From: a virus
Lineage: Duplodnaviria > Heunggongvirae > Uroviricota > Caudoviricetes
Length of the DNA stretch: 28,103 bases
Virus record (IMG/VR): IMGVR_UViG_2529292905_000015
Reading direction: 5' to 3' (one strand)
The position numbers were made by a program, and so were the translations under genes. The notes under the pieces were generated by a model. It worked only from the letters and a program-made list of their open reading frames with translations. It was not told where the DNA came from and did not search any database. Shown here one piece after another: positions 1 through 16,834 of the stretch (position 1 is its first letter; each line of letters begins with the position of its first letter).

Positions 1-1032
1 TTATTTGATTTCAATTTTGTCCCACTCCCTGCCTCTGTCATCACGATACTGTGATGCCATGGTGTCCGACTTATGCCCGAGAAGATGTTGAGCAAACTTA
101 TCGCTTATCTGCTTCTCATAGAGTCTTGCAGACAAACTGCGCAACTCGTGAAAGGTAGGCGGATCCCCTTCGAAGGAAAGACCTGATGCTTTTCGTGCGC
201 GCATAAAATACCTTGATACTGTGCCGGATGAAAGCGGTTCACGACGAGTAGATGCAATTATGGTTTCTCCGCCAAGAATCTCTTTGCATTTATCAAGTGT
301 TTCCTTCATTGATATCCCGAGAGCATCAACATGCAATGTTGTAGGGATGGCAATTTTTACGCCTGTTTTGCTTTGTTCGACATAAAGATATCCATCTACG
401 ATATCAGACCACTTCATTTCGCATAAATCACCAACTCGCTGCCCGGTAACAACAGCCAGTTCCATTGCAAGTCTGAGCCAACATGGTGATGATTCTGCTG
501 CTTGATAAATTTTCAGGTATTCGTCAGCCGTAAGTCTTGATCTCCTTACCTCTGATTTTGCTGCGCGAGTGGCAGCGACCGGGTTTGTTGTTATATGGCC
601 TTCAGCTATTGCCTCTCGGAATGCATCGCTCAGTGTTGATCTGATTAACTTGGCTGACGCCGCCTTGCCCTCGTCTATGTATCCATTGAGCATTGCCGCA
701 ATTTCTTTTGTGGTGATGTCTTCAAGTGGAGCATCAGGCAGCCCCCTCCTTATTGCTTTAATTTTGCTCATGTAATTTATGAGTGTCTTCTGCTTGATTC
801 CTCTGCTGGCGAGGATTTTTTCGTAGCGATCAAGCCATGAATGTAACGTAACAGAATTATCACTGTTGATTCTCGCTGTCAGAGGCTTGTGTTTGTGTCC
901 TGAAAATAACTCAATATTGGCCTGTATTGCTTCAGTGATTGCTATCCTCCTGTCTCGGCCTAAACCAAACTCTTTACCCGTCCTTGGGTCCCTGTAGCAG
1001 TAATATCCATTGTTTCTTATATAAAGGTTAGG
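1..1032 (-). pseudogene. int: Lambda-type tyrosine integrase (Int), truncated at its 5' end by IS629; lacks about the first 12 codons. The ORF-track extension to 1125 runs into the IS and begins on a TTG.
   Basis: Translation is near-identical to remembered lambda Int from PNLYIRNNGYYCYRDPRTGKEF through the C-terminal REWDKIEIK; stop codon at 1-3 on the minus strand; the IS629 terminal repeat starts at 1033 immediately after the PNLY codons. Confidence 0.85.
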
Positions 1033-1086: not shown

Positions 1087-1413
1087 ATGACTAAAAATAC
1101 ACGTTTTTCCCCCGAGGTCCGTCAACGGGCAGTTCGTATGGTTCTGGAAAGTCAGGGCGAATATGACTCACAATGGGCGGCAATTTGTTCCATTGCCCCA
1201 AAGATTGGCTGTACGCCAGAGACTCTGCGTGTGTGGGTTCGTCAGCATGAGCGGGATACCGGGAGTGGTGATGGTGGATTCACCACCGCTGAACGTCAGC
1301 GTCTGAAAGAGCTGGAACGTGAAAATCGTGAACTGCGCCGCAGTAACGATATCCTTCGCCAGGCTTCCGCTTATTTTGCGAAGGCGGAGTTCGACCGCCT
1401 CTGGAAAAAATAA
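1087..1413 (+). CDS. IS629 transposase OrfA (helix-turn-helix DNA-binding subunit)
   Basis: 108 aa, [30 protein letters not shown]..., matches remembered IS629/IS1203 OrfA; ends in an A-run followed by TAATG that overlaps the OrfB start. Confidence 0.9.
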
Positions 1414-2300
1414 TGCCACTGCTGGATAAGCTGCGTGAGCAGTACGGGGTCGGACCGGTATGCAGTGAACTGCATATTGCCCCGTCAACGTATTACCACT
1501 GTCAGCAACAGCGACATCATCCTGATAAACGCAGTGCCCGTGCGCAGCGCGATGACTGGCTGAAGAGAGAGATACAGCGCGTATACGATGAAAATCATCA
1601 GGTGTACGGTGTGCGTAAAGTCTGGCGCCAGTTGTTACGCGAAGGTATCAGGGTGGCCAGATGTACAGTGGCGCGCCTCATGGCGGTTATGGGACTTGCC
1701 GGTGTTCTCCGGGGTAAAAAGGTCCGTACTACCGTCAGCCGGAAAGCCGTTTCCGCAGGCGACCGCGTAAACCGTCAGTTCGTGGCAGAACGTCCTGACC
1801 AGCTGTGGGTGGCTGATTTTACTTACGTCAGCACATGGCAGGGCTTCGTCTATGTGGCGTTCATCATTGATGTGTTTGCCGGATGCATCGTGGGGTGGCG
1901 AGTCTCATCGTCTATGGAAACGACATTCGTGCTGGATGCACTGGAGCAGGCGTTGTGGGCCCGTCGGCCGTCCGGCACAGTCCATCACAGTGATAAAGGT
2001 TCTCAGTATGTATCACTGGCCTATACGGAGCGACTAAAAGAAGCAAAACTGCTGGCATCAACAGGGAGTACAGGTGACTCGTATGACAACGCGATGGCGG
2101 AGAGCATCAATGGTCTTTACAAAGCGGAGGTAATACACCGTAAGAGCTGGAAAAACCGTGCAGAAGTGGAACTGGCCACACTCACGTGGGTGGACTGGTA
2201 TAACAATCGACGATTGCTGGGAAGGCTGGGTCATATCCCTCCGGCAGAAGCAGAAAAAGCTTATTATGCTTCCATCAGAAACGATGATCTGGCAGCCTGA
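1413..2300 (+). CDS. IS629 transposase OrfB (DDE catalytic subunit), in the -1 frame relative to OrfA; normally made as an OrfAB fusion by frameshifting
   Basis: 295 aa with an integrase-core DDE-type sequence (…WVADFTYV…HSDKGSQY…YDNAMAES…); the frame relationship to OrfA is typical of IS3-family elements. Confidence 0.9.
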   Translation: MPLLDKLREQYGVGPVCSELHIAPSTYYHCQQQRHHPDKRSARAQRDDWLKREIQRVYDENHQVYGVRKVWRQLLREGIRVARCTVARLMAVMGLAGVLRGKKVRTTVSRKAVSAGDRVNRQFVAERPDQLWVADFTYVSTWQGFVYVAFIIDVFAGCIVGWRVSSSMETTFVLDALEQALWARRPSGTVHHSDKGSQYVSLAYTERLKEAKLLASTGSTGDSYDNAMAESINGLYKAEVIHRKSWKNRAEVELATLTWVDWYNNRRLLGRLGHIPPAEAEKAYYASIRNDDLAA

Positions 2301-2990: not shown

Positions 2991-3157
2991 TTGACCAAAA
3001 TCGAAGTTACGAACAAGAAAGCGTCGAGCGAGCTTTAACGTGCGCTAACTGCGGTCAGAAGCTGCATGTGCTGGAAGTTCACGTGTGTGAGCACTGCTGC
3101 GCAGAGCTGATGAGCGATTCGAATAGCTCGATGCACGAGGAAGAAGATGATGGCTAA
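2945..3157 (+). CDS. ninF: NinF-like small Cys-rich protein; start uncertain (GTG at 2945 or GTG near 2987)
   Basis: C-terminal part [45 protein letters not shown] matches remembered lambda NinF; the first codon of the track ORF is GTG. Confidence 0.7.
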
Positions 3158-3770
3158 ACCAGCGCGAAGACGATGTAAAAACGATGAATGTCGGGAATGG
3201 TTTCACCCTGCATTCGCTAATCAGTGGTGGTGCTCTCCAGAGTGTGGAACCAAGATAGCACTCGAACGACGAAGCAAAGAACGCGAAAAAGCGGAAAAGG
3301 CAGAAAAGGCAGCAGAGAAGAAACGACGACGAGAGGAGCAGAAACAGAAAGATAAACTTAAGATTCAAAAACTCGCCTTAAAGCCCCGCAATTACTGGAT
3401 TAAACAAGCCCAACAAGCCGTAAACGCCTTCATCAGAGAAAGAGACCGCGACTTACCATGTATCTCGTGCGGAACGCTCACGTCTGCTCAGTGGGATGCC
3501 GGACATTACCGGACAACTGCTGCGGCACCTCAACTCCGATTTGATGAACGCAATATTCACAAGCAATGCGTGGTGTGCAACCAGCACAAAAGCGGAAATC
3601 TCGTTCCGTATCGCGTCGAACTGATTAGCCGCATCGGGCAGGAAGCAGTAGAGGAAATCGAATCAAACCATAACCGCTATCGCTGGACTGTCGAAGAGTG
3701 CAGGGCCATCAAGGCGGAGTATCAACAGAAACTTAAAAAACTGCGAAACAGCAGAAGTGAGGTTGCATGA
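3147..3770 (+). CDS. ninG: NinG (Rap-like recombination protein)
   Basis: [42 protein letters not shown]... near-identical to lambda NinG; start overlaps the ninF end. Confidence 0.9.
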
Positions 3771-4432
3771 ATATCTACGAAAGAATTGATGGCAGCAAAT
3801 ACCGAAATATTTGGGTAGTTGGCGATCTGCACGGATGCTACACGAACCTGATGAAAAAACTGGAGACGATAGGATTCGACACCAAAAAAGACCTGCTTAT
3901 CTCGGTGGGCGATTTGGTTGATCGCGGTACAGAGAACGTAGAATGCCTGGAATTAATCACATTCCCCTGGTTCAGAGCTGTACGTGGAAACCATGAGCAA
4001 ATGATGATTGATGGCTTATCAGAGCGTGGAAACGTCAATCACTGGCTGCTTAATGGCGGTGGCTGGTTCTTTAATCTCGATTACGACAAAGAAATTCTGG
4101 CTAAAGCTCTTGCCCATAAAGCAGATGAACTTCCGTTAATCATCGAACTGGTGAGTAAAGGAAAAAAATATGTCATCTGCCACGCCGATTATCCTTGTGA
4201 TAAATACGAGTTTGGAAAGCCAGTTGATCATCAGCAGGTAATCTGGAACCGCGAACGAATCAGCAACTCACAAGACGGGATCGTGAAAGAAATCAAAGGC
4301 GCGGACACGTTCATCTTTGGTCATACGCCAGCAGTGAAACCACTCAAATTTGCCAACCAGATGTATATCGATACTGGCGCAGTGTTCTGCGGAAACCTCA
4401 CATTGATTCAGGTACAGGGAGAAGGCGCATGA
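3767..4432 (+). CDS. ninI: NinI-type serine/threonine protein phosphatase (PPP family)
   Basis: GDLHGCY and GNHE metallophosphatase motifs; near-identical to remembered lambda NinI (221 aa); ATGA overlap with ninG; GAGG Shine-Dalgarno upstream. ninC, ninD and ninH are absent. Confidence 0.9.
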
Positions 4433-4560
4433 GACTCGAAAGCGTAGCTAAATTTCATTCGCCAAAAAGCCCGATGATGAGCGACTCACTACTGGCCACA
4501 GTTTATTGGTTTTCGTAACTGAGTCATTTTATTATTTTATTGCAACTTTTAATCTTTTAT

Positions 4561-4610
4561 AGTGCGAAATAAATGGAGCTGGCATTCATTTCGCACTTTA
4601 TGTTTTTGTT
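4561..4610 (+). terminator. Putative intrinsic terminator: perfect 10-bp inverted repeat (AGTGCGAAAT / ATTTCGCACT) with a 17-nt loop, followed by TTATGTTTTTGTT
   Basis: Read directly from the sequence; lies between ninI and the convergent minus-strand cargo gene. The T-rich tail is on the plus strand only. Confidence 0.45.
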
Positions 4611-4643
4611 GGACTTATGTTATTTTGATTGAATTCAATTCAG

Positions 4644-5603
4644 TTAAAAAAAGAAGGTGATTGCTCCATTTATAAATGAATAGTCATCCCCTGTCTTGAA
4701 TTCTGATGTTACTTTATTAAATGCTAGTGTGAAGGCTACAGGTGCATACCCAATTGTTGCGCCAACTTGATATTCATCAACAGTTTTGTTTAGCGATACT
4801 GTTGTTTGTTTCGTCTGTATTGTTTTTCCTTCGAGAGTATAGTTGCGATTGACATCTCGTCTTTCCATACCTGCAAAAATCTTGTATTTGAATCCGCTTG
4901 TATCGGACATATGCATTAAACCACGGGGAGCCAGCAGACCAAAGCCATTATCCGAATTGAAGGTTTTATCATTACCAATGGCAATGGTTGCGCCATATGC
5001 TACATATTGAAATAAGTTTCCAGTAACAGCAGAAACTTCAGGGTATAATCCAACATTAGCACCTAAAATATCCATACTTGGTGTCATGGATAGCATCCCT
5101 TTTACAGTATAACCGTAGCGATTCTCTATTTGATCATCCCATGCATGATATTTTTCTGCCCCAATAATCTCATGAGCTTTATTTTGTACTTTCTGACCGC
5201 CTGCGTCGGGGCCAACAACACCTATGTCAGTACCTAATCGATAGCGAATCCAGTCATTCGCAAGGGAGTTCCATTCAATACCAGTGTGAGTGTATGCACT
5301 AAAAGCTCTGTCTCCAGTTACAGCTGTGTTGTGTCTTTTATTACTGCCTGATGGAGAGTAAATATCTTGCGCAATATGGAGAGATAATTGGCTCGAGTCT
5401 GAGATATCGTGGCTATATCCCAGAAATAAGCCTTGTGAGTAATCATCTCTGTTTTCATGTTTATTGCCATAAATATCATTAAGTATTGGTTGAAACTTCC
5501 CTGCATCATCATTTGCTAATGATAATGCAAGGCTGTTCGCGATAGCTGAACACGTGGTAAATGACAGAGCAATAAAGACGCCAGCGATGACACTTTTTTT
5601 CAT
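4644..5603 (-). CDS. Outer-membrane beta-barrel protein, cargo gene; tentatively LpxR-like lipid A 3'-O-deacylase
   Basis: 319 aa; N-terminal signal peptide MKKSVIAGVFIALSFTTCSA; alternating amphipathic segments; C-terminal aromatic FFF typical of a beta-barrel signature; AT-rich with atypical codon usage; antisense to the flanking phage genes. Size and position recall the prophage-borne LpxR of EHEC, but this is from memory, not a sequence match. Confidence 0.7.
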   Translation of the reverse strand: MKKSVIAGVFIALSFTTCSAIANSLALSLANDDAGKFQPILNDIYGNKHENRDDYSQGLFLGYSHDISDSSQLSLHIAQDIYSPSGSNKRHNTAVTGDRAFSAYTHTGIEWNSLANDWIRYRLGTDIGVVGPDAGGQKVQNKAHEIIGAEKYHAWDDQIENRYGYTVKGMLSMTPSMDILGANVGLYPEVSAVTGNLFQYVAYGATIAIGNDKTFNSDNGFGLLAPRGLMHMSDTSGFKYKIFAGMERRDVNRNYTLEGKTIQTKQTTVSLNKTVDEYQVGATIGYAPVAFTLAFNKVTSEFKTGDDYSFINGAITFFF

Positions 5604-5993
5604 ATGTTATTGTCTTCCTTTTTTTGAATGGTGCGCGTATTTTACATACATGAGTTTGTAATACAAGGTGCGTAATCAATATGATGTTTTATAATTGCGT
5701 GAGACAATTGATTTATTCGTTTTTTATTGCGGTTTTTATTATCTTTTAATGTAACGGTGTTTTTATTAAGTGTGTTTGCGTGGTGTTTTATGTTTTTTAT
5801 AATTTTTATTTTATTAAATTTAAATGCATTAGTAATGGCTATTCTATATAGCAATATAAGAACTGTTACAAAAAAAGGGGGGGCAATTACAGGTAGTTAT
5901 GGATGATGAGTGAAACAGATATTGGAGAACCGGGGAATGAATGATGTCTGAGTCTTATATATCAGAACTCCTTCGCTGTCGCTGGGGGCTCCT
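5604..5993. promoter_or_regulatory. Strongly AT-rich divergent intergenic region with phased T-tracts (GTTTTTATT repeats); probable promoter region for the cargo gene and Q, and a plausible curved-DNA / H-NS target
   Basis: Repeated T5-6 tracts spaced roughly 10-12 bp apart between about 5690 and 5820; sits between divergent genes. H-NS binding is inferred from composition only. Confidence 0.4.
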
Positions 5994-6767
5994 GTGCTTA
6001 TGTCGTTTCCCCGATTCGGTTTTGAACGATTACCGAATGTTGAAGAATTATGCCAAAATATAGAAAGGATTTACTGCATGAATACCCAATATTTACAGTA
6101 TGTTCGTGAGCAACTTATGGCAGCTACTGCTGACTTGAACGGAGCAACGAAAGGCCAGCTCGAAGCCTGGCAGGAGCATGCACAATTTGATACTGGTACA
6201 TACAAACGAAAGAAGCCGCGCATTCTGGATGTGGTAACTGGCAAGATGATTACGCTGGATAATACGCCGACTTCCGGTAAGCAGTCGTACGCAAAAGGTT
6301 CATCCATTGCTTTGGTCAGCCCGGTTGAATTCTCAACCTCTTCATGGCGCCGCGCGGTTTTGTCTCTCGATGAACATCAGAAAGCATGGTTGCTTTGGTG
6401 TTACAGCGAAAGCGTTCGATGGGGGCATCAGGTCACCATAACGCAATGGGCATGGAGCGAGTTTAAAGATTTGTTAAGTAACAGAAAAATTGCAGGTAAG
6501 ACACTGGATCGCCTGAAGACGTTAATCTGGCTGGCTGCACAGGATGTGAAGAGCGAACTTGCAGGGCGTGAGGCCTATGAATACCAGACACTGGCATCAT
6601 TGGTGGGAGTGACAACAAAAAACTGGTCCGAGACATTTACTGAACGCTGGGTTGCAATGAAGCACATTTTTCTACAGCTTGATAGTGATGCTTTATTGCT
6701 TGTGACGAGAACACGTTCAAAACAAAAGGCAGCATTTTTACAGCAAAATATTGCAAAACTGGATTAA
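5994..6767 (+). CDS. Late-gene antiterminator Q, long form; probable true start at ATG 6078 (MNTQYLQYVREQL...)
   Basis: Sits between the nin region and the PR'-tR' unit and lysis genes; resembles the roughly 250-aa Q proteins of E. coli cryptic prophages (from memory); the track ORF begins on GTG at 5994; ATG 6078 has an AGGA motif about 8 nt upstream. Confidence 0.6.
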   Translation: MLMSFPRFGFERLPNVEELCQNIERIYCMNTQYLQYVREQLMAATADLNGATKGQLEAWQEHAQFDTGTYKRKKPRILDVVTGKMITLDNTPTSGKQSYAKGSSIALVSPVEFSTSSWRRAVLSLDEHQKAWLLWCYSESVRWGHQVTITQWAWSEFKDLLSNRKIAGKTLDRLKTLIWLAAQDVKSELAGREAYEYQTLASLVGVTTKNWSETFTERWVAMKHIFLQLDSDALLLVTRTRSKQKAAFLQQNIAKLD

Positions 6768-6779
6768 AAGCCATATACT
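6751..6779 (+). promoter_or_regulatory. PR'-like late promoter: -35 TTGCAA (6751-6756), 17-bp spacer, -10 TATACT (6774-6779); the Q-utilisation site is expected to overlap
   Basis: Sigma-70 consensus-like hexamers with ideal spacing, immediately after the Q stop and about 35 nt upstream of a strong terminator; a -10-like TATGTT lies in the initially transcribed region, as at lambdoid pause sites. Confidence 0.5.
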
Positions 6780-6814
6780 TCATGCAAATTTGGTATGTTG
6801 TAAAAAATGTATAA

Positions 6815-6839
6815 ACCCGCTGCCGAGTGGGTTTTTTTT
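6815..6839 (+). terminator. tR'-like intrinsic terminator: 7-bp stem ACCCGCU / AGUGGGU (one G-U pair), GCCG loop, then eight T
   Basis: Hairpin plus T8 read directly from the sequence, about 35 nt downstream of the PR'-like -10. Confidence 0.7.
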
Positions 6840-6936
6840 ATGCCCTGAGTTGTACTTGTACGGTAAACATGCTGGCTGCTATGTAATAGAGTTTTTTTAG
6901 CCTGTAACCTCTTGACGGCATTGAATTGCTTTTGTT

Positions 6937-7695
6937 ATGAGTTGTAAGCCAATGTTATCATCTTGTATTGGGGTGGTTATGAAGGATGGTGCGCTGCTCA
7001 GGAGTTCTTCACTTTTTATTGCCTACATGGGATGCCTTGGATGGGGGAGTGCTTATTTCTATGGATGGGGTACTTCTTTTTACTACGGCTTCCCATGGTG
7101 GATTGTAGGTGCAGGTGTTGATGATGTTGCCAGAAGTTTATTTTTTGCAGTTATCGTCATTGCTATATTTCTTATCGGTTGGGGTATTGGTGTTGTATTC
7201 TTTTTCGCAGTGAAAAGAAAACATTCTATGCAAGAGCTAAATGTATTTCGCCTTTATTTTGCTGTGGAATTATTGTTTGTGCCGGCAATTATTGAGTTTT
7301 CTATATTGAGACAGAAGATTCAGGTACCTCTTTTGCTACTGTCAGCAGCGATTGCGCTGGCGGTTACAATTTCGATAAGATCTTATGGGCGATTTTTATC
7401 GGTATCATGCTTCTATGATAAGCCATTTATAAAAAAACATTTTTTTGAGATTGTGATGATTGCTTTTGTGGCATATTTCTGGCTTTTTTCATTTCTGACA
7501 GGATATTACAAACCACAGTTTAAGAAAGAATATGAAATGATTAATTATAATGATGGTTGGTATTATGTTCTTGCTCGTTATGATAATTGTCTGGTTTTGT
7601 CTACTTCTTTCAATGCAGGTAGTAAAAGGTTTGTCATTTATCAATCAGCACAAGATAAGAATCTTCAGGTTGATATTGTAAGGACCAGAATTTAA
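6937..7695 (+). CDS. Polytopic inner-membrane protein of unknown function (moron between Q and the lysis cassette); start ambiguous (ATG 6937, 6952 or 6979)
   Basis: About 5 predicted hydrophobic helices, an aromatic/Gly-rich N-terminal segment (GWGSAYFYGWGTSFYYGFPWW) and a roughly 60-aa hydrophilic C-terminal tail; AT-rich; possible own promoter TTGACG (6912-6917) with TATGAG about 18 bp downstream. Confidence 0.65.
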   Translation: MSCKPMLSSCIGVVMKDGALLRSSSLFIAYMGCLGWGSAYFYGWGTSFYYGFPWWIVGAGVDDVARSLFFAVIVIAIFLIGWGIGVVFFFAVKRKHSMQELNVFRLYFAVELLFVPAIIEFSILRQKIQVPLLLLSAAIALAVTISIRSYGRFLSVSCFYDKPFIKKHFFEIVMIAFVAYFWLFSFLTGYYKPQFKKEYEMINYNDGWYYVLARYDNCLVLSTSFNAGSKRFVIYQSAQDKNLQVDIVRTRI

Positions 7696-8125
7696 TTGGC
7701 TGCATAAATAATATTTTAAGTTGCAAGTTGGCTATTCGTAGGAATAGAACCTTAGGCATGCTGAATGCGTTTCCTGAACATTGTTTTATAAACTGTGTCT
7801 GCTTGCTGTTGTGATCCTGCTTTTAGTGATGGTGATGATGGATTTCACCAGCAGGATAATGTTGGTACTGACTGATGGCGCTCTGGTCTGCGGCATTGTG
7901 GTATTGCTGTGGCCGATGATGAAAGAACAGAATGAATAATTCTTGACTTTTTTGTTTACTGTTTATTAAAAAATCAACCGCATGGTGAATCCTCCTTGGA
8001 GGGGCTAAATGATCGAGTTTTAAGGGCACGTAGCGAGTTCTGTTTGATCATTGCAGAACTTAGCGGGAGGCGCCATGCGTACATCACTAATGTTATTTCC
8101 TTCTATCATTTTCCTTGTGAGTTCT

Positions 8126-8152
8126 GGCTGCGCATGGCGCGGCCTTTTTTTT
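8126..8152 (+). terminator. Strong intrinsic terminator: GGCUGCGC-AUG-GCGCGGCC hairpin followed by eight T
   Basis: 8-bp GC-rich stem with one G-U pair and a T8 tract, read directly; lies downstream of the moron and upstream of the lysis cassette. Confidence 0.7.
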
Positions 8153-8328
8153 ATGACCTGCCACTGGCAGATGGTCATCCTGTGATTTGATTCCGGTTCC
8201 GGCTTTTTAACTCTGTTCCTGTACACGGGAGAAATTCTATGTCGATTAATCGTTATGATATTGGTTACAAGAAGTACCACGTATTGTGTTGAGATAGAAA
8301 GCATGGTGCCAGAGGTAAATGCAGCAGC

Positions 8329-8380
8329 ATAATAAAAAAGAGCCAGCGCAGAAGAGAACGGGTAAAAGAGTCTGCGCTGG
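8329..8380 (-). terminator. Minus-strand terminator-like element: perfect 10-bp inverted repeat (CCAGCGCAGA / TCTGCGCTGG) with an 18-nt loop, followed on the minus strand by CTCTTTTTTATT
   Basis: Read directly; the U-rich tail exists only on the minus strand; a consensus-like minus-strand promoter lies about 55-110 bp upstream of it (see findings). Confidence 0.5.
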
Positions 8381-8560
8381 CGTGGGGATATTCCCCGTGG
8401 AGAAATGATATGTAACACACATCGGGAACCTTTCTATATAAACATTATCATTATTGTCAATCATAACAGTCAGGTATTATGACGTTTATGCATCAGGGCC
8501 ATCAGGAATTAACTGGTGGCTTTTTATTGTTGTCAGCTTCCGGATAACGGGAGACGGGGT

Positions 8561-8776
8561 ATGTACCAGATGGAAAAAATAACAACAGGTGTGTCATACA
8601 CCACGTCAGCGGTGGGGACGGGATACTGGCTACTGCAGTTGCTGGACAAAGTCTCCCCATCCCAGTGGGTGGCAATAGGCGTATTGGGTAGCTTGGTGTT
8701 TGGCTTGCTGACGTATCTGACAAACCTTTATTTCAAGATTAAAGAAGATAAGCGTAAGGCTGCGAGAGGTGAATAA
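8561..8776 (+). CDS. S: Class II holin, phage 21 S-type pinholin, with a dual-start motif (MYQMEK)
   Basis: [66 protein letters not shown] closely resembles remembered S21; two transmembrane segments; stop overlaps the endolysin start. Confidence 0.85.
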
Positions 8777-9273
8777 TGTCGCCATCATTACGCAAGGCTG
8801 TTGCTGCTGCTATTGGTGGTGGGGCTGTTGCCATAGCGTCTGTGCTCATCACTGGTCCGAGTGGTGACGATGGCCTGGAAGGTGTCAGCTACATACCATA
8901 CGAAGATATCGTTGGCGTATGGACTGTATGTCACGGACACACCGGAAAAGACATCATGCCCGGTAAAACGTATACCGAAGCAGAATGCAAAGCCCTCCTG
9001 AATAAAGACCTTGCCACGGTCGCCAGACAAATTAACCCGTACATCAAAGTCGATATACCGGAAACAACGCGCGGCGCTCTTTACTCGTTCGTTTACAACG
9101 TGGGCGCTGGTAATTTCAGAACATCGACGCTTCTTCGCAAAATAAACCAGGGTGATATCAAAGGCGCATGTGATCAGCTACGGCGCTGGACATACGCTGG
9201 CGGTAAGCAATGGAAAGGGCTGATGACTCGCCGCGAGATTGAGCGTGAAGTCTGTTTGTGGGGGCAACAATGA
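8776..9273 (+). CDS. R: SAR (signal-anchor-release) endolysin, lysozyme-type, phage 21 R-like
   Basis: N-terminal Gly/Ala-rich weakly hydrophobic segment ([20 protein letters not shown]) followed by a lysozyme-like domain; immediately follows the pinholin. Confidence 0.85.
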
Positions 9274-13354: not shown

Positions 13355-14862
13355 TGGCAATTCTTGATGATGTGATTGGCGTTTTTTCACCAGGATGGAA
13401 AGCGGCAAGGCTGCGTTCCCGTGCGGTGATCCAGGCTTATGAGGCCGTAAAAACGACGCGGACACACAAAGCCCGGCGGGAAAACCGAACTGCCGGCCAG
13501 TTAAGCCAGTACGGGGCCGTGTCGTTACGTGAGCAGGCCCGTTACCTTGATAACAACCACGATCTGGTTATTGGTGTATTTGACAAGCTGGAAGAACGGG
13601 TGGTGGGGAAAAACGGGATTATTGTCGAGCCACATCCGGTATTACGCAATGGGGCCATTGCCCGTGATCTGGCAGCGGAGATACGCACCCGATGGAGTGA
13701 ATGGTCTGTCAGTCCGGAAGTCACCGGGCAGTTTACCCGTCCGATGCTGGAACGTCTGATGCTGCGTACCTGGCTGCGCGATGGTGAGGTGTTTGCCCAG
13801 ATGGTTTCCGGGCGCATAAACAGCCTGACGCCTTCTGCCGGTGTTCATTTCTGGCTGGAGGCGCTCGAGCCAGACTTTATTCCCATGACCAGTGATGAGA
13901 GCAACAGGCTGAATCAGGGCGTGTTTGTTGATGACTGGGGGCGTCCCGAAAAATATCTGGTGTATAAAAGCCGTCCCGTATCCGGACGGCAGATGGAAAC
14001 CAAAGAAGTGGATGCAGAGCGAATGCTGCATCTTAAATTTGTTCGCCGTCTGCACCAGATGCGCGGGACGTCTTTGTTGTCCGGTGTGCTGATCCGCCTC
14101 AGTGCCCTGAAAGAGTATGAGGATTCTGAGCTGACTGCAGCAAGGATCGCCGCTGCTCTGGGGATGTACATCCGGAAAGGCGATGGGCAGAGCTATGAAC
14201 CGGATGGTAATGGCAGCAAGGATAAGGAACGCGAGCTTACCATTCAGCCAGGCATTATTTACGACGATCTGAAACCCGGCGAAGAAATCGGAATGGTGAA
14301 GTCGGATCGCCCCAATCCTAACCTTGAAACTTTTCGTAATGGTCAGTTGCGTGCCGTGGCGGCGGGCAGTCGTCTGAGTTTTTCCAGTACAGCGCGCAAC
14401 TATAACGGCACTTACAGCGCCCAGCGTCAGGAGCTGGTTGAATCCACTGATGGCTACCTGATCCTGCAGGACTGGTTTATTGGTGCCGTCACCCGCCCGA
14501 TGTATCGTGCCTGGCTGAAACAGGCTGTGGCATCCGGTGTTATCAGGCTACCCCGCGATCTTGACCGTTCTTCACTGTATACCGCGGTGTATTCCGGACC
14601 GGTGATGCCGTGGATTGACCCTGTTAAGGAGGCTGAGGCCTGGAAAATTCAGATTCGTGGTGGAGCAGCGACAGAATCAGACTGGGTACGTGCAGGTGGT
14701 CGTAATCCGGATGATGTCAAACGTCGGCGCAAGGCCGAAATTGATGAAAACCGCAAGCTGGATCTGGTATTTGATACCGATCCGGCCAGTGATAAAGGAG
14801 GCAGCAGTGCCGCAACGAAACGACAGGAGCCGCAGCACACCGACGACCAGTCCGAAGAATAA
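13354..14862 (+). CDS. Portal protein (not the lambda gpB type)
   Basis: 502 aa; located between gpW and the prohead protease; ATG overlaps the W stop; size and acidic C-terminus are typical of portal proteins. The track ORF starts upstream at 13282. Confidence 0.75.
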   Translation: MAILDDVIGVFSPGWKAARLRSRAVIQAYEAVKTTRTHKARRENRTAGQLSQYGAVSLREQARYLDNNHDLVIGVFDKLEERVVGKNGIIVEPHPVLRNGAIARDLAAEIRTRWSEWSVSPEVTGQFTRPMLERLMLRTWLRDGEVFAQMVSGRINSLTPSAGVHFWLEALEPDFIPMTSDESNRLNQGVFVDDWGRPEKYLVYKSRPVSGRQMETKEVDAERMLHLKFVRRLHQMRGTSLLSGVLIRLSALKEYEDSELTAARIAAALGMYIRKGDGQSYEPDGNGSKDKERELTIQPGIIYDDLKPGEEIGMVKSDRPNPNLETFRNGQLRAVAAGSRLSFSSTARNYNGTYSAQRQELVESTDGYLILQDWFIGAVTRPMYRAWLKQAVASGVIRLPRDLDRSSLYTAVYSGPVMPWIDPVKEAEAWKIQIRGGAATESDWVRAGGRNPDDVKRRRKAEIDENRKLDLVFDTDPASDKGGSSAATKRQEPQHTDDQSEE

Positions 14863-14875
14863 TTCCTGGTTCAGG

Positions 14876-15808
14876 ATGCAGGCTGGTCACCAGAGTGACG
14901 CGGATATTTATATTTATGACGAGATTGGTTTCTGGGGTGTTACAGCGAAGCAGTTTATCAGTGATCTGAATGCACTGGGCGATATCACCCACATTAATCT
15001 CCATATCAATTCACCGGGTGGCGATGTCTTTGAAGGCATCGCCATTTTTAATGCACTGAAAACACATGGTGCGTCCATTACCGTTTATGTCGACGGTGTG
15101 GCGGCGTCAATGGCGTCGGTCATTGCGATGGTGGGAAAACCGGTCATTATGCCGGAAAACTCCTTCATGATGATTCATAAACCATTTGGCTTTACGGGCG
15201 GTGATGCGGAGGACATGCGCACCTATGCCGACCTGCTCGATAAAGTTGAGGCGGTTCTGTTACCCGCTTATGCACAGAAAACCGGGAAAGCCACCGATGA
15301 AATTGCTGCCATGCTGGCGGATGAGACCTGGATGTCCGGTGCCGAATGTCTGGCACATGGATTTGCTGATCAGGTGACGCCAGCCGTTAAGGCAATGGCA
15401 TGTATTCAGTCAAAACGTACAGAGGAATTTAAAAAGATGCCGGAATCCATTCGAAACATGATTACTCCGCCACGCAACAGTGCTCCACGCGTACAGGATG
15501 ATGGACCTGCAGCCTCCCGGACGCCAGTGCAGGCAGCAGCACCTGTGGTGGATGAAAACAGTATCCGTGCGCAGGTACTGGCAGAGCAAAAAGCGCGTGT
15601 AAACGGTATTAATGATCTGTTTGCCATGTTTGGCGGGCGTTATCAGACGCTGCAGGCTCAGTGTCTTGCCGATCCTGAATGTTCGCTGGAGCAGGCCCGC
15701 GAAAAGCTGTTGAACGAGATGGGGCGCGAGTCCACGCCATCTAATAAAAATACCCCGGCTCATATTTATGCCGGAAACGGTAATTTTGTGGGGGATGGGA
15801 TCCGCTAG
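14876..15808 (+). CDS. Prohead maturation protease, ClpP/S49-like (possibly with a C-terminal scaffold region)
   Basis: ClpP-fold-like core with GVAASMASVIAMVG and …MIHKP…; follows the portal. The track ORF begins earlier at 14615 but overlaps the portal; ATG 14876 lies just after the portal stop. Confidence 0.75.
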   Translation: MQAGHQSDADIYIYDEIGFWGVTAKQFISDLNALGDITHINLHINSPGGDVFEGIAIFNALKTHGASITVYVDGVAASMASVIAMVGKPVIMPENSFMMIHKPFGFTGGDAEDMRTYADLLDKVEAVLLPAYAQKTGKATDEIAAMLADETWMSGAECLAHGFADQVTPAVKAMACIQSKRTEEFKKMPESIRNMITPPRNSAPRVQDDGPAASRTPVQAAAPVVDENSIRAQVLAEQKARVNGINDLFAMFGGRYQTLQAQCLADPECSLEQAREKLLNEMGRESTPSNKNTPAHIYAGNGNFVGDGIR

Positions 15809-15814
15809 GCGCTG

Positions 15815-16834
15815 ATGGCGCGTGCCGGATTTGAAAAAACCGAACGTGATAATGTCTACAACGGGATGACCCTGCGTGAATATGCCCGTATGTCACTGAC
15901 TGAACGGGGTATTGGGGTTTCCAGTTATAACCCGATGCAGATGGTCGGTGCGGCGTTCACACACAGTACGTCTGACTTCGGTAATATTCTGCTGGATGTT
16001 GCGAACAAAGCCATTCTGCAGGGCTGGGAAGATGCCCCTGAAACCTATGAACAGTGGACGCGGAAAGGTCAGTTGTCTGATTTTAAAATTGCCCATCGTG
16101 TGGGTATGGGGGGCTTCAGTGCTCTGCGTCAGGTGCGTGAAGGGGCGGAATATAAATACGTCACCACCGGAGATAAACAGGCCACTATTGCACTGGCGAC
16201 CTATGGCGAGCTGTTCAGTATCACCCGTCAGGCCATTATCAATGATGATCTGAATATGCTGACCGATGTCCCGATGAAACTGGGCCGTGCGGCGAAATCC
16301 ACTATTGCCGATCTGGTTTATGCCATTCTGACGTCTAACCCGAAAATCTCCACAGATAATGTAAGTCTGTTCGATAAAGCGAAACATGCAAACGTACTGG
16401 AGAGCGCTGCAATGGACGTGGCATCGCTGGATAAAGCCCGCCAGTTGATGCGCGTTCAGAAAGAGGGGGAGCGTCATCTGAATATTCGTCCTGCGTTCGT
16501 ACTGGTACCGACGGCGATGGAGTCTGTTGCTAACCAGGTCATTCGCTCCTCAAGTGTCAAGGGGGCTGACATTAACGCCGGTATTATTAACCCGGTGAAA
16601 GATTTTGCGACCGTTATTGCAGAGCCTCGTCTTGATGATAACAGCCAGACCACCTTCTACCTGGCTGCGTCAAAAGGCTCCGATACGATTGAAGTGGCTT
16701 ATCTCAACGGTGTGGATACGCCATATATTGATCAGATGGAGGGCTTCAGTGTGGATGGCGTGACAACGAAAGTGCGTATTGACGCCGGTGTCGCGCCAGT
16801 TGATCACCGCGGTCTGGTGAAATGTACGGCGTAA
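15815..16834 (+). CDS. Major capsid protein (HK97-fold type, non-lambda gpE)
   Basis: 339 aa directly after the protease, followed by a terminator hairpin; start codon uncertain (an alternative is ATG 15866). Confidence 0.75.
   Translation: MARAGFEKTERDNVYNGMTLREYARMSLTERGIGVSSYNPMQMVGAAFTHSTSDFGNILLDVANKAILQGWEDAPETYEQWTRKGQLSDFKIAHRVGMGGFSALRQVREGAEYKYVTTGDKQATIALATYGELFSITRQAIINDDLNMLTDVPMKLGRAAKSTIADLVYAILTSNPKISTDNVSLFDKAKHANVLESAAMDVASLDKARQLMRVQKEGERHLNIRPAFVLVPTAMESVANQVIRSSSVKGADINAGIINPVKDFATVIAEPRLDDNSQTTFYLAASKGSDTIEVAYLNGVDTPYIDQMEGFSVDGVTTKVRIDAGVAPVDHRGLVKCTA

Follow-up and report, generated by a model that had tools for sequence, protein, structure and literature searches.

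A gene that runs against all of its phage neighbours, between the nin genes and the antiterminator gene Q of a lambda-like prophage, raises the questions of what it encodes, how it came to lie there and who gains from it. We followed these questions in a 28,103-nucleotide stretch of DNA (the window) from the Caudoviricetes record IMGVR_UViG_2529292905_000015. The first-pass annotation, made from the letters of the window, had described a 319-aa protein with a signal peptide and a C-terminal FFF, and exactly such an open reading frame, with an ATG start, occupies 4644-5603 of the minus strand. Its antisense position was also correctly seen; ninG (3147-3770), ninI (3767-4432) and Q (to 6767) are each encoded on the plus strand.

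The product had been guessed, by its size and architecture, to belong to the LpxR family of lipid A 3'-O-deacylases of the outer membrane, and this is what the searches returned. PF09982 (LpxR) matches residues 10-318 with 137.4 bits (gathering cutoff 26) and an E value of 6.8e-40, spanning profile positions 2-320 of 323; no other Pfam family was matched at E <= 0.01, PagL and the omptins, the two alternatives named beforehand, included. A search of PDB sequences at E <= 1 found a single match, 3FID, the Salmonella LpxR that is the founding and structurally solved member (E 3.6e-153; query residues 24-319 on chain residues 2-296), with 74.3% identity (220/296) and one 1-residue gap. From this full-length identity to a solved 12-stranded barrel we infer that the protein probably adopts the same fold, in line with the beta-barrel that the guess called for. 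The LpxR of S. enterica serovar Typhimurium is likewise a 319-aa precursor (PMC6863877). NCBIfam gave no match, which reflects the want of an equivalog model and does not count against the LpxR assignment, and in PHROGs the family that covers it end to end, phrog_2309, still carries the label 'unknown function'.

Both termini suit an exported barrel on inspection of the sequence. The N-terminus, MKKSVIAGVFIALSFTTCSAIA|NSLA, combines a basic n-region (MKK) with a hydrophobic core and with an A-x-A motif at the predicted cleavage site AIA|N, so that the signal peptide would comprise residues 1-22 (5538-5603, minus strand). Cleavage after A22 agrees with the mature 3FID chain, whose alignment starts at residue 24, and with the published numbering, which differs by 22 for precursor and mature protein (PMC6863877). 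The C-terminus, ...GAITFFF, is an aromatic beta-signal.

The residue lists compared were those of PMC6863877 and PMC6260217, which give, in mature numbering, N9, D10, T/S34, Q118, H122 and E128 as the active-site set and K67 and R68 as docking residues. All listed active-site and Ca2+-site residues were found (N31, D32, S56, Q140, H144 and E150, as well as D33), together with the substrate-docking residues K89 and R90. N9, D10, D11, K67, R68, Q118, H122, E128 and the C-terminal TFFF are thus shared with Salmonella LpxR, while position 34 is Ser, as in the active Yersinia enzyme, and not Thr as in Salmonella. In the Yersinia enzyme (Ser34), N9A, D10A, S34A, Q118A and H122A each abolish deacylation (PMC3486919). 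Another class of barrel (a PagL-type 3-O-deacylase, an omptin protease or a phospholipase) can be dismissed with near certainty on the LpxR-only Pfam match, the 74% identity to 3FID and the LpxR-specific residues. What speaks for such a class is the signal peptide, the barrel size and the terminal Phe, and nothing beyond these.

We propose that the precursor would be exported by Sec, cut after A22 and, through its C-terminal ...TFFF signal, placed in the outer membrane by Bam as a barrel of 12 strands. Once in the outer leaflet, it would act as a Ca2+-dependent hydrolase, in which H144 (H122 of the mature protein) would activate water, N31, D32 and S56 would bind the Ca2+ by which the ester is polarised, and K89 and R90 would dock the Kdo sugars. 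Removal of the whole 3'-acyloxyacyl unit would turn hexa-acyl into tetra-acyl lipid A, a poor TLR4/MD-2 agonist.

The gene is not only a family member but the allele of a pathogen. Its CDS is identical in 960/960 positions to that of E. coli O157:H7 EDL933, where the LpxR homologue is Z0955 (PMC4699771), and it is 100% identical to copies in many other O157:H7, O111:H8 and O80:H26 genomes, every O157:H7 copy among the matches listed being included. Among 5426 complete E. coli genomes, 622 carry lpxR, all annotated as 'lipid A deacylase LpxR family protein'; 620 of these copies are at least 99% identical, in many serotypes and in different prophage backgrounds. A scan of genome contigs for exact peptide words found one Citrobacter locus only and missed Salmonella and E. 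coli, and it says little on distribution because of the choice of patterns and the use of representative genomes.

In EDL933, Z0955 has the same flanks (ninG, ninI, a Q remnant, lpxR, ylcG, Q, a 247-aa membrane protein, DUF3927 and the holin) and its prophage occupies the same chromosomal site, the lambda attachment site adjoining ybhC. The two differ only in the state of prophage decay: the window has int, an IS3-family element and ninB, EDL933 a frameshifted int, xis, exo, a truncated bet and ninE. The prophage of the window is a decayed lambda-like element at attB-lambda of a strain of the O55:H7/O157:H7 lineage, apparently one of O55:H7 type.

For this very gene, lysogenic conversion with blunting of TLR4 recognition, as the first-pass annotation had conjectured, is on record. 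Activity as a 3'-O-deacylase is reported for lpxR of EHEC O157:H7 Sakai, and in EHEC the gene is reported to need Pch and Ler, to reduce phagocytosis and to attenuate NF-kB/p38 signalling via TLR4 (Ogawa et al. 2018, as cited in PMC6393859 and PMC6863877). In its regulation, with control by Pch/Ler in EHEC (PMC6393859), the gene also differs from that of Salmonella. Independent-component analysis places lpxR in the LEE/Ler modulon (PMC9263587), and a strong association with the LEE among bovine and human isolates is described in PMC6724679. In LEE-positive E. coli the gene would act within the Pch/Ler virulence regulon, being expressed from the prophage and independently of the phage late programme; published work describes its expression as autonomous and dependent on Ler/Pch.

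The gene is therefore lpxR, a known EHEC/EPEC prophage gene whose product makes lipid A lose two fatty acids and damps innate recognition, and nothing in this is new. Its 3'-O-deacylation lowers the endotoxic activity of LPS and belongs to the virulence programme that goes with the LEE in EHEC and EPEC; LpxR has also been proposed as a conserved vaccine antigen (PMC6863877). We put the probability that the locus as a whole is a LEE-linked lipid A 3'-O-deacylase gene in an antisense AT-rich prophage cassette at about 95%. The present analysis contributes to this the family, the full-length homology, the active-site residues, the identity of the allele to that of EHEC and the boundaries of the cassette, and the literature contributes the enzymatic activity, the regulation and the immune effect.

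That the gene came from outside was claimed in part from its composition, and the composition indeed deviates. The CDS has 39.4% GC with a GC3 of 30.3% (46-50% in the neighbours), the intergenic region upstream of it (5604-5940) 29.4% and the spacer 3' of it (4500-4643) 27.8%. Over the cassette as a whole (4500-5940) GC is 35.9%, compared with 47.0% in ninG-ninI, 46.1% in Q and 51.2% in the whole window.

The ends of the cassette can be placed with some precision. On the left, a lambda-type Q remnant of 29 codons (4429-4518, plus strand) overlaps the ninI stop codon; in phage 434 its annotation reads 'antiterminator-like protein, N-terminal fragment', and RefSeq genomes give it as an incomplete pseudogene of an antitermination protein. 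Bases 4433-4499/4501 share 94-97% identity with the Q 5' end of lambda, HK620, epsilon34 and others, and this is all of the cassette region that lambda-type phages match, which sets the left boundary inside the remnant at about 4499-4501. On the right, homology to phage 82 (X92588) and PhiR47_2 (rusA/ylcG/Q) starts at 5932-5933 of the window (query 329-330 of 5604-6800), so the boundary falls at about 5932, just upstream of a ylcG-like ORF of 40 codons (5941-6063, plus strand; YlcG family protein, phrog_2705), the first gene of a phage-82-type ylcG-Q module. The cassette thus measures about 1.43 kb (about 4500-5931).

Q itself is of the phage-82 type, by its homology to phage 82 Q, and matches PF06323 (E 1.7e-91). 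Its longest ORF starts at GTG 5994, the start assumed in the first-pass annotation, but the annotated start is 6078 (6078-6767, plus strand; 690 bp and 229 aa in RefSeq). In the interval 4433-5993 that was originally delimited between ninI and Q, the stretch up to 4518 is no empty spacer but belongs to the Q remnant, and the end of the interval 5' of lpxR overlaps the ylcG-like ORF. Sharp boundaries at the joint of two Q types explain why the cassette travels with the phage-82-type Q.

In lambda and in phage 82 the genes on either side are present but the cassette is not, and the only phage records that carry the block are the two of phage 434. On sequence grounds, the description of the cassette as a horizontally acquired phage moron, an extra block of deviating composition between conserved phage genes, holds. 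A search for repeats gave just short two-copy matches typical of AT-rich DNA and no direct or inverted ones at its ends, hence no transposon or IS signature; Rfam gave nothing in the cassette at the gathering threshold, and a permissive scan of 4300-9000 was empty inside 4433-5993.

Like the classical lambdoid morons (bor and lom of lambda, nmpC of DLP12), lpxR is an outer membrane protein gene between conserved phage genes, of deviating composition, presumably with its own transcription from the prophage and with benefit to the lysogen. Unlike these, it is inserted antisense inside the nin-Q operon, at the recombination joint of two Q types, and it encodes an LPS-editing enzyme and no porin or serum-resistance lipoprotein. 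The lpxR of Salmonella is chromosomal and is not known to lie in a lambdoid prophage.

The closest phage relative is phage 434 (OL657226), in which the LpxR protein is 100% identical and annotated as 'outer membrane beta-barrel lipid A deacylase'. A 1561-bp region is 99.3% identical there, with the same Q remnant, hairpin (see below), ylcG-like ORF and Q, and with an 8-bp deletion in the spacer 3' of lpxR. The genome announcement of phage 434 does not mention the gene by name. Phage 434 differs from the prophage of the window in being complete and plaque-forming, with an intact early region and pR, so that transcripts antiterminated by N have to pass through lpxR in antisense before they get to Q.

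The presence of an identical cassette in a fully functional laboratory phage isolated from sewage, unconnected with LEE pathogens, could mean that the phage is the main beneficiary, LpxR remodelling the outer membrane of the lysogen so as to impede competing phages at adsorption or at DNA entry, or to alter vesiculation, with immune evasion as a by-product. In other prophage contigs a 71% identical lpxR is found next to tail-fibre genes, again a classical place for a moron, which would agree with this, as would a paper that links phage resistance of Salmonella Rissen to lipid A changes and mentions LpxR (PMC11668645). However, the acyl chains of lipid A lie buried and are not known to serve as phage receptors, neither the present data nor the papers examined show phage exclusion by LpxR, and in its distribution the gene follows the LEE (PMC6724679). 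We consider a benefit primarily to the phage highly improbable, and retain the LEE-linked deacylase as the preferred reading.

Whether the gene is at work in this prophage is a separate matter. Its early region between int and ninB is wholly replaced by the IS3-family element and its capsid gene has an internal stop; in such a defective prophage a true lpxR might be silent or latent cargo, kept without measurable effect on lipid A or fitness by H-NS repression of its AT-rich DNA or by inactivity in the membrane. The upstream region of 29% GC would suit repression. LpxR is latent in Yersinia at 21 C (PMC3486919), low activity of the Salmonella enzyme is noted in PMC6260217, and a drop of the lpxR transcript upon adherence to colonic epithelial cells is also described in the literature. 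Since latent LpxR occurs, the presence of the gene does not prove lipid A modification in every condition. Against silent cargo, the CDS has stayed intact amid decaying phage genes around it, with identity of >= 99% in 620 genomes, which points to purifying selection; moreover, a lipid A and immune phenotype is reported for an EHEC lpxR mutant (PMC6393859 and PMC6863877) and lpxR co-varies with ler expression (PMC9263587). Silent cargo is therefore improbable in our view, and an expressed LEE-linked lpxR is preferred.

Expression would be governed from the AT-rich upstream region (5604-5931, minus strand; about 29% GC), which had been singled out from the start and which contains the Shine-Dalgarno sequence AAGGAAG (5620-5614). 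Two weak sigma-70-like candidates are found in it on the minus strand, GTAACA-17-TAGAAT (5869-5841) and TTGTAT-16-TAAAAT (5666-5639), the proximal one being conserved in a 95% variant (L056). Neither is a convincing sigma-70 promoter, and the scan of the region is uninformative, its five matches not exceeding the 6.7 +/- 2.8 of shuffled sequences. We infer that the promoter is situated in this region, which is presumably the target of silencing, by H-NS, and of Ler/Pch control. The window contains neither ler nor pch, and a Pch/H-NS ChIP paper does not mention the lpxR locus under the tags tried.

A hairpin was expected at the 3' side of the gene, and an inverted repeat is present at 4561-4597, between the Q remnant and the lpxR stop codon. 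In RNA of the lpxR (minus) strand it forms 15 pairs with -20.3 kcal/mol (z = -5.2, to two decimals -5.16; 0/200 shuffles as stable), and in plus-strand RNA a shorter stem (z = -2.61). The U-rich run UUUAUGUUUUUGUU comes after the hairpin on the plus strand and no U run follows it on the lpxR strand; its presence is confirmed, its reading as the intrinsic terminator of lpxR is not. It was not among the calls of the simple terminator scan. It is identical in phage 434 and has one loop substitution in L056.

The geometry of the locus and the conservation of the hairpin raise the possibility, which we regard as doubtful, that the antisense placement is itself functional. Where the carrier is intact, as phage 434 is, transcription from pR must traverse lpxR in antisense on its way to Q; the lytic programme and the expression of lpxR might thereby interfere with one another, and the hairpin at 4561-4597 might gate Q as an N-sensitive terminator or insulator. 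If so, 434, a classical laboratory phage, would be a lipid-A-converting phage, and K-12(434) lysogens might have 3'-O-deacylated lipid A under some conditions.

A single long ORF with an ATG start, encoding 319 amino acids, lies at 4644-5603 on the minus strand in the six-frame ORF list. The ORF is surrounded by three plus-strand genes, with ninG (3147-3770; Pfam NinG, E 3.8e-88) and ninI (3767-4432; calcineurin-like phosphoesterase, a Ser/Thr phosphatase in NCBIfam) on one side and the phage-82-type Q (annotated start 6078, end 6767; Pfam Phage_antiter_Q, E 1.7e-91) on the other. The N-terminus of the protein is MKKSVIAGVFIALSFTTCSAIA followed by NSLA and the C-terminus is GAITFFF; the antisense gene for a protein with a signal peptide and a terminal FFF, as described in the first-pass annotation, is thus present, and that observation stands, apart from minor changes to the coordinates. 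The CDS has a GC content of 39.4% (GC3 30.3%), the 337 bases upstream (5604-5940) 29.4% and the spacer 3' of the gene (4500-4643) 27.8%, compared to 47.0% for ninG-ninI, 46.1% for Q and 51.2% for the whole window, which bears out the AT-richness initially attributed to the gene and its upstream region.

LpxR (PF09982) is the sole Pfam family matched by the protein (137.4 bits against a curated cutoff of 26, residues 10-318). Among all PDB chains, one matching sequence was found, that of the Salmonella Typhimurium LpxR crystal structure (PDB code: 3FID; E 3.6e-153), the chain residues 2-296 of which pair with residues 24-319 of the protein. The identity counted from this alignment is 220/296 (74.3%) with one single-residue gap, equal to the 74% published for the EHEC LpxR (PMC6863877). 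The active and Ca2+ site residues are N9, D10, T/S34, Q118, H122 and E128, i.e. 31, 32, 56, 140, 144 and 150 of the precursor (PMC6863877), and D11, K67 and R68 are docking residues (PMC6260217); N31, D32, D33, S56, K89, R90, Q140, H144 and E150 are all found in the window protein. Position 34 is Ser instead of Thr, the same Ser as in the active Yersinia enzyme, where each of the N9A, D10A, S34A, Q118A and H122A changes abolishes deacylation (PMC3486919). The possibility that the protein is a different barrel enzyme is refuted by the sole Pfam match, the 3FID match and the active-site residues; PagL and omptin, named at the outset as alternatives to LpxR, were matched neither in the Pfam scan nor in the PDB sequence search. 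The LpxR-family assignment, originally a guess, is therefore supported by both the PF09982 match and the identity to 3FID. No NCBIfam model matches the protein, and its end-to-end PHROGs match is phrog_2309 (E 3e-230), a family that still bears the label "unknown function"; given that Pfam, RefSeq and the literature agree on LpxR, the annotation of the phage-specific library is incomplete here.

The gene is the already known lpxR of EHEC and EPEC, being annotated in RefSeq and GenBank and studied experimentally. Its CDS is identical (960/960) to the E. coli O157:H7 EDL933 gene for a "lipid A deacylase LpxR family protein" (WP_000750155.1), the locus tag of the EDL933 homologue being Z0955 (PMC4699771), and to genes in many other O157:H7, O111:H8 and O80:H26 genomes. 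Papers citing Ogawa et al. 2018 (Cell Microbiol 20:e12806) describe the EHEC lpxR product as a lipid A 3'-O-deacylase, the transcription of which requires Pch and Ler, alongside the LEE genes, and describe an lpxR mutant with stronger TLR4-mediated NF-kB/p38 signalling and increased phagocytosis (PMC6393859, PMC6863877). In an independent decomposition of transcriptome data, lpxR fell into the LEE/Ler modulon (PMC9263587), population genomics revealed a strong lpxR-LEE association (PMC6724679), and LpxR, found in 97.3% of 224 EHEC genomes, was proposed as a vaccine antigen (PMC6863877). The gene is best explained by the textbook account, a Sec/Bam-exported lipid A deacylase under Pch/Ler control. 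LpxR would be exported by Sec, inserted into the outer membrane by Bam, and would hydrolyse the 3'-acyloxyacyl ester by a mechanism involving Ca2+ and a His-water; the tetra-acyl lipid A produced would activate TLR4/MD-2 more weakly, with expression from the prophage being controlled by Pch/Ler. That lpxR is instead a latent gene conferring no phenotype in this host is unlikely, as it is opposed by its conservation (lpxR is present in 622 of 5426 complete E. coli genomes, with at least 99% identity in 620) and by the mutant phenotypes as cited in those papers.

Over its first 9 kb the window shows 100% identity to the E. coli O55:H7 DEC5E chromosome, in which the element adjoins ybhC, as does the EDL933 element; we take this site to be the lambda attachment site. 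An IS3-family insertion sequence (1087-2300), with an ALIL programmed-frameshift pseudoknot (Rfam RF01497, 120.9 bits) at 1368-1484 (+), directly follows int (1-1020, minus strand) and directly precedes ninB (2371-2811). Since this element alone separates int from ninB, the genes found between them in lambda or the DEC5A prophage (repressor, cII, O, P and others) are absent, and the prophage is therefore defective. A ClpP-like prohead protease/major capsid fusion gene (about 14615-16834, plus strand) is split into ORFs 14615-15808 and 15815-16834, the identical DEC5E gene being a RefSeq pseudogene with an internal stop, which is further evidence that the prophage is unable to form particles. 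Amid decaying neighbours, lpxR has stayed intact and without variation in many such backgrounds, which we take as a sign of host-side selection. A function serving the phage itself, such as exclusion, could be imagined but is highly improbable.

The cassette is also carried by phage 434 (DNA 99.3%, protein 100% identical), a complete phage that was obtained from sewage in Paris during the 1950s. Its genome announcement does not mention lpxR by name (PMC9119081); the gene is annotated there as "outer membrane beta-barrel lipid A deacylase" in the phage 434 record. The protein is identical in almost all of the 55 IMG/VR loci; one (L056) encodes a 95% variant, also between ninI and Q, and two (L058, at 835-1791, and L059) a variant with 71% protein identity (LpxR Pfam, E 7.5e-37). 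The latter adjoins prophage tail-fibre genes (phage_tail_N, DUF4376) and the remnant of an IS3-type transposase; lpxR has therefore been acquired by prophages on two or more occasions, at two distinct classical moron sites. A copy on an E. coli plasmid (NZ_AP045065.1, 48957-49835) has 83% DNA identity to the prophage allele; such divergent copies occur in 2 of the 622 lpxR-positive genomes. Citrobacter sp. ANG330 (locus L004, 3995-4957) has a chromosomal homologue (73% identity) that lies upstream of homologues of phoP and phoQ, at a distance of about 600 bp, a suggestive location for an enzyme that modifies lipid A.

Within 4433-5993, only the first 67-69 bases (4433 to ~4500) are matched by lambda, HK620, epsilon34 and dozens more phage records, at 94-97%. 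These bases are the 5' end of a lambda-type Q, a remnant (4429-4518, plus strand) that begins ATG AGA CTC GAA, diverges and stops after 29 codons; both the phage 434 annotation and RefSeq label its counterpart a Q fragment. Homology to phage 82 (rus-orf45-Q) and PhiR47_2 begins at ~5932, just before a ylcG-like 40-codon ORF (5941-6063, plus strand) and the phage-82-type Q. As the lambda-type match ends at ~4500 and the phage 82 match starts at ~5932, sequence comparison delimits a foreign block of about 1.43 kb (about 4500-5931), and its position at the joint of two Q-gene types explains why the cassette is linked to the phage-82-type Q. The repeat search found no flanking repeats that would point to transposition.

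The hairpin reported earlier at the 3' side of the gene proved real on folding: at 4561-4597 (inverted repeat I2 in the repeat search) the minus-strand RNA forms 15 pairs (z = -5.2; 0/200 shuffles fold equally well). Its sequence is the same in phage 434 and has one loop substitution in the 95% variant locus. The consensus terminator scan did not call it, its U-rich tail is on the plus strand and not on the lpxR strand, and it does not have the classical form of an lpxR terminator. In intact phages like 434, the antisense orientation of the gene together with this conserved hairpin could tie lpxR expression to read-through from pR to Q, a possibility that we regard as doubtful. Upstream of lpxR, on the minus strand, are a Shine-Dalgarno AAGGAAG (5620-5614) and two weak sigma-70-like candidates, GTAACA-17-TAGAAT (5869-5841) from the promoter scan and TTGTAT-16-TAAAAT (5666-5639) from sequence reading, the latter with hexamers unchanged in the 95% variant; neither is established, because the sites in the scan overall did not outnumber those in shuffles.

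Downstream of Q there is a second AT-rich stretch (6937-7695 (+) and 7200-7800; 31-33% GC), with a multi-pass membrane protein of 252 (annotated 247) amino acids that matches phrog_1521 ("unknown function") and no Pfam or NCBIfam family, followed by a 52-aa TciB-like ORF (7781-7939; phrog_1470, moron category). It is another moron-like block, located where Stx phages have stx. The interval from the TciB-like ORF to the holin gene contains a 132-aa minus-strand ORF (8020-8418), annotated as hypothetical (WP_012578864.1), with no PHROG match; the weak Esr41-like Rfam match over its 5' end (8332-8421; 32 bits against a gathering score of 102) is probably due to chance. A sub-threshold match to STnc100, a family of prophage sRNAs (7950-8155 (+); 37.7 bits against a gathering score of 47, E 9.2e-6), also falls in this interval, preceded by the DUF3927/TciB-like ORF and followed by the holin gene. 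According to a 2026 preprint, the STnc100-related sRNAs PasD1 and PasD2 are found no more than 10 kb from Q and lpxR in over 98% of cases. The match may thus be a PasD variant.
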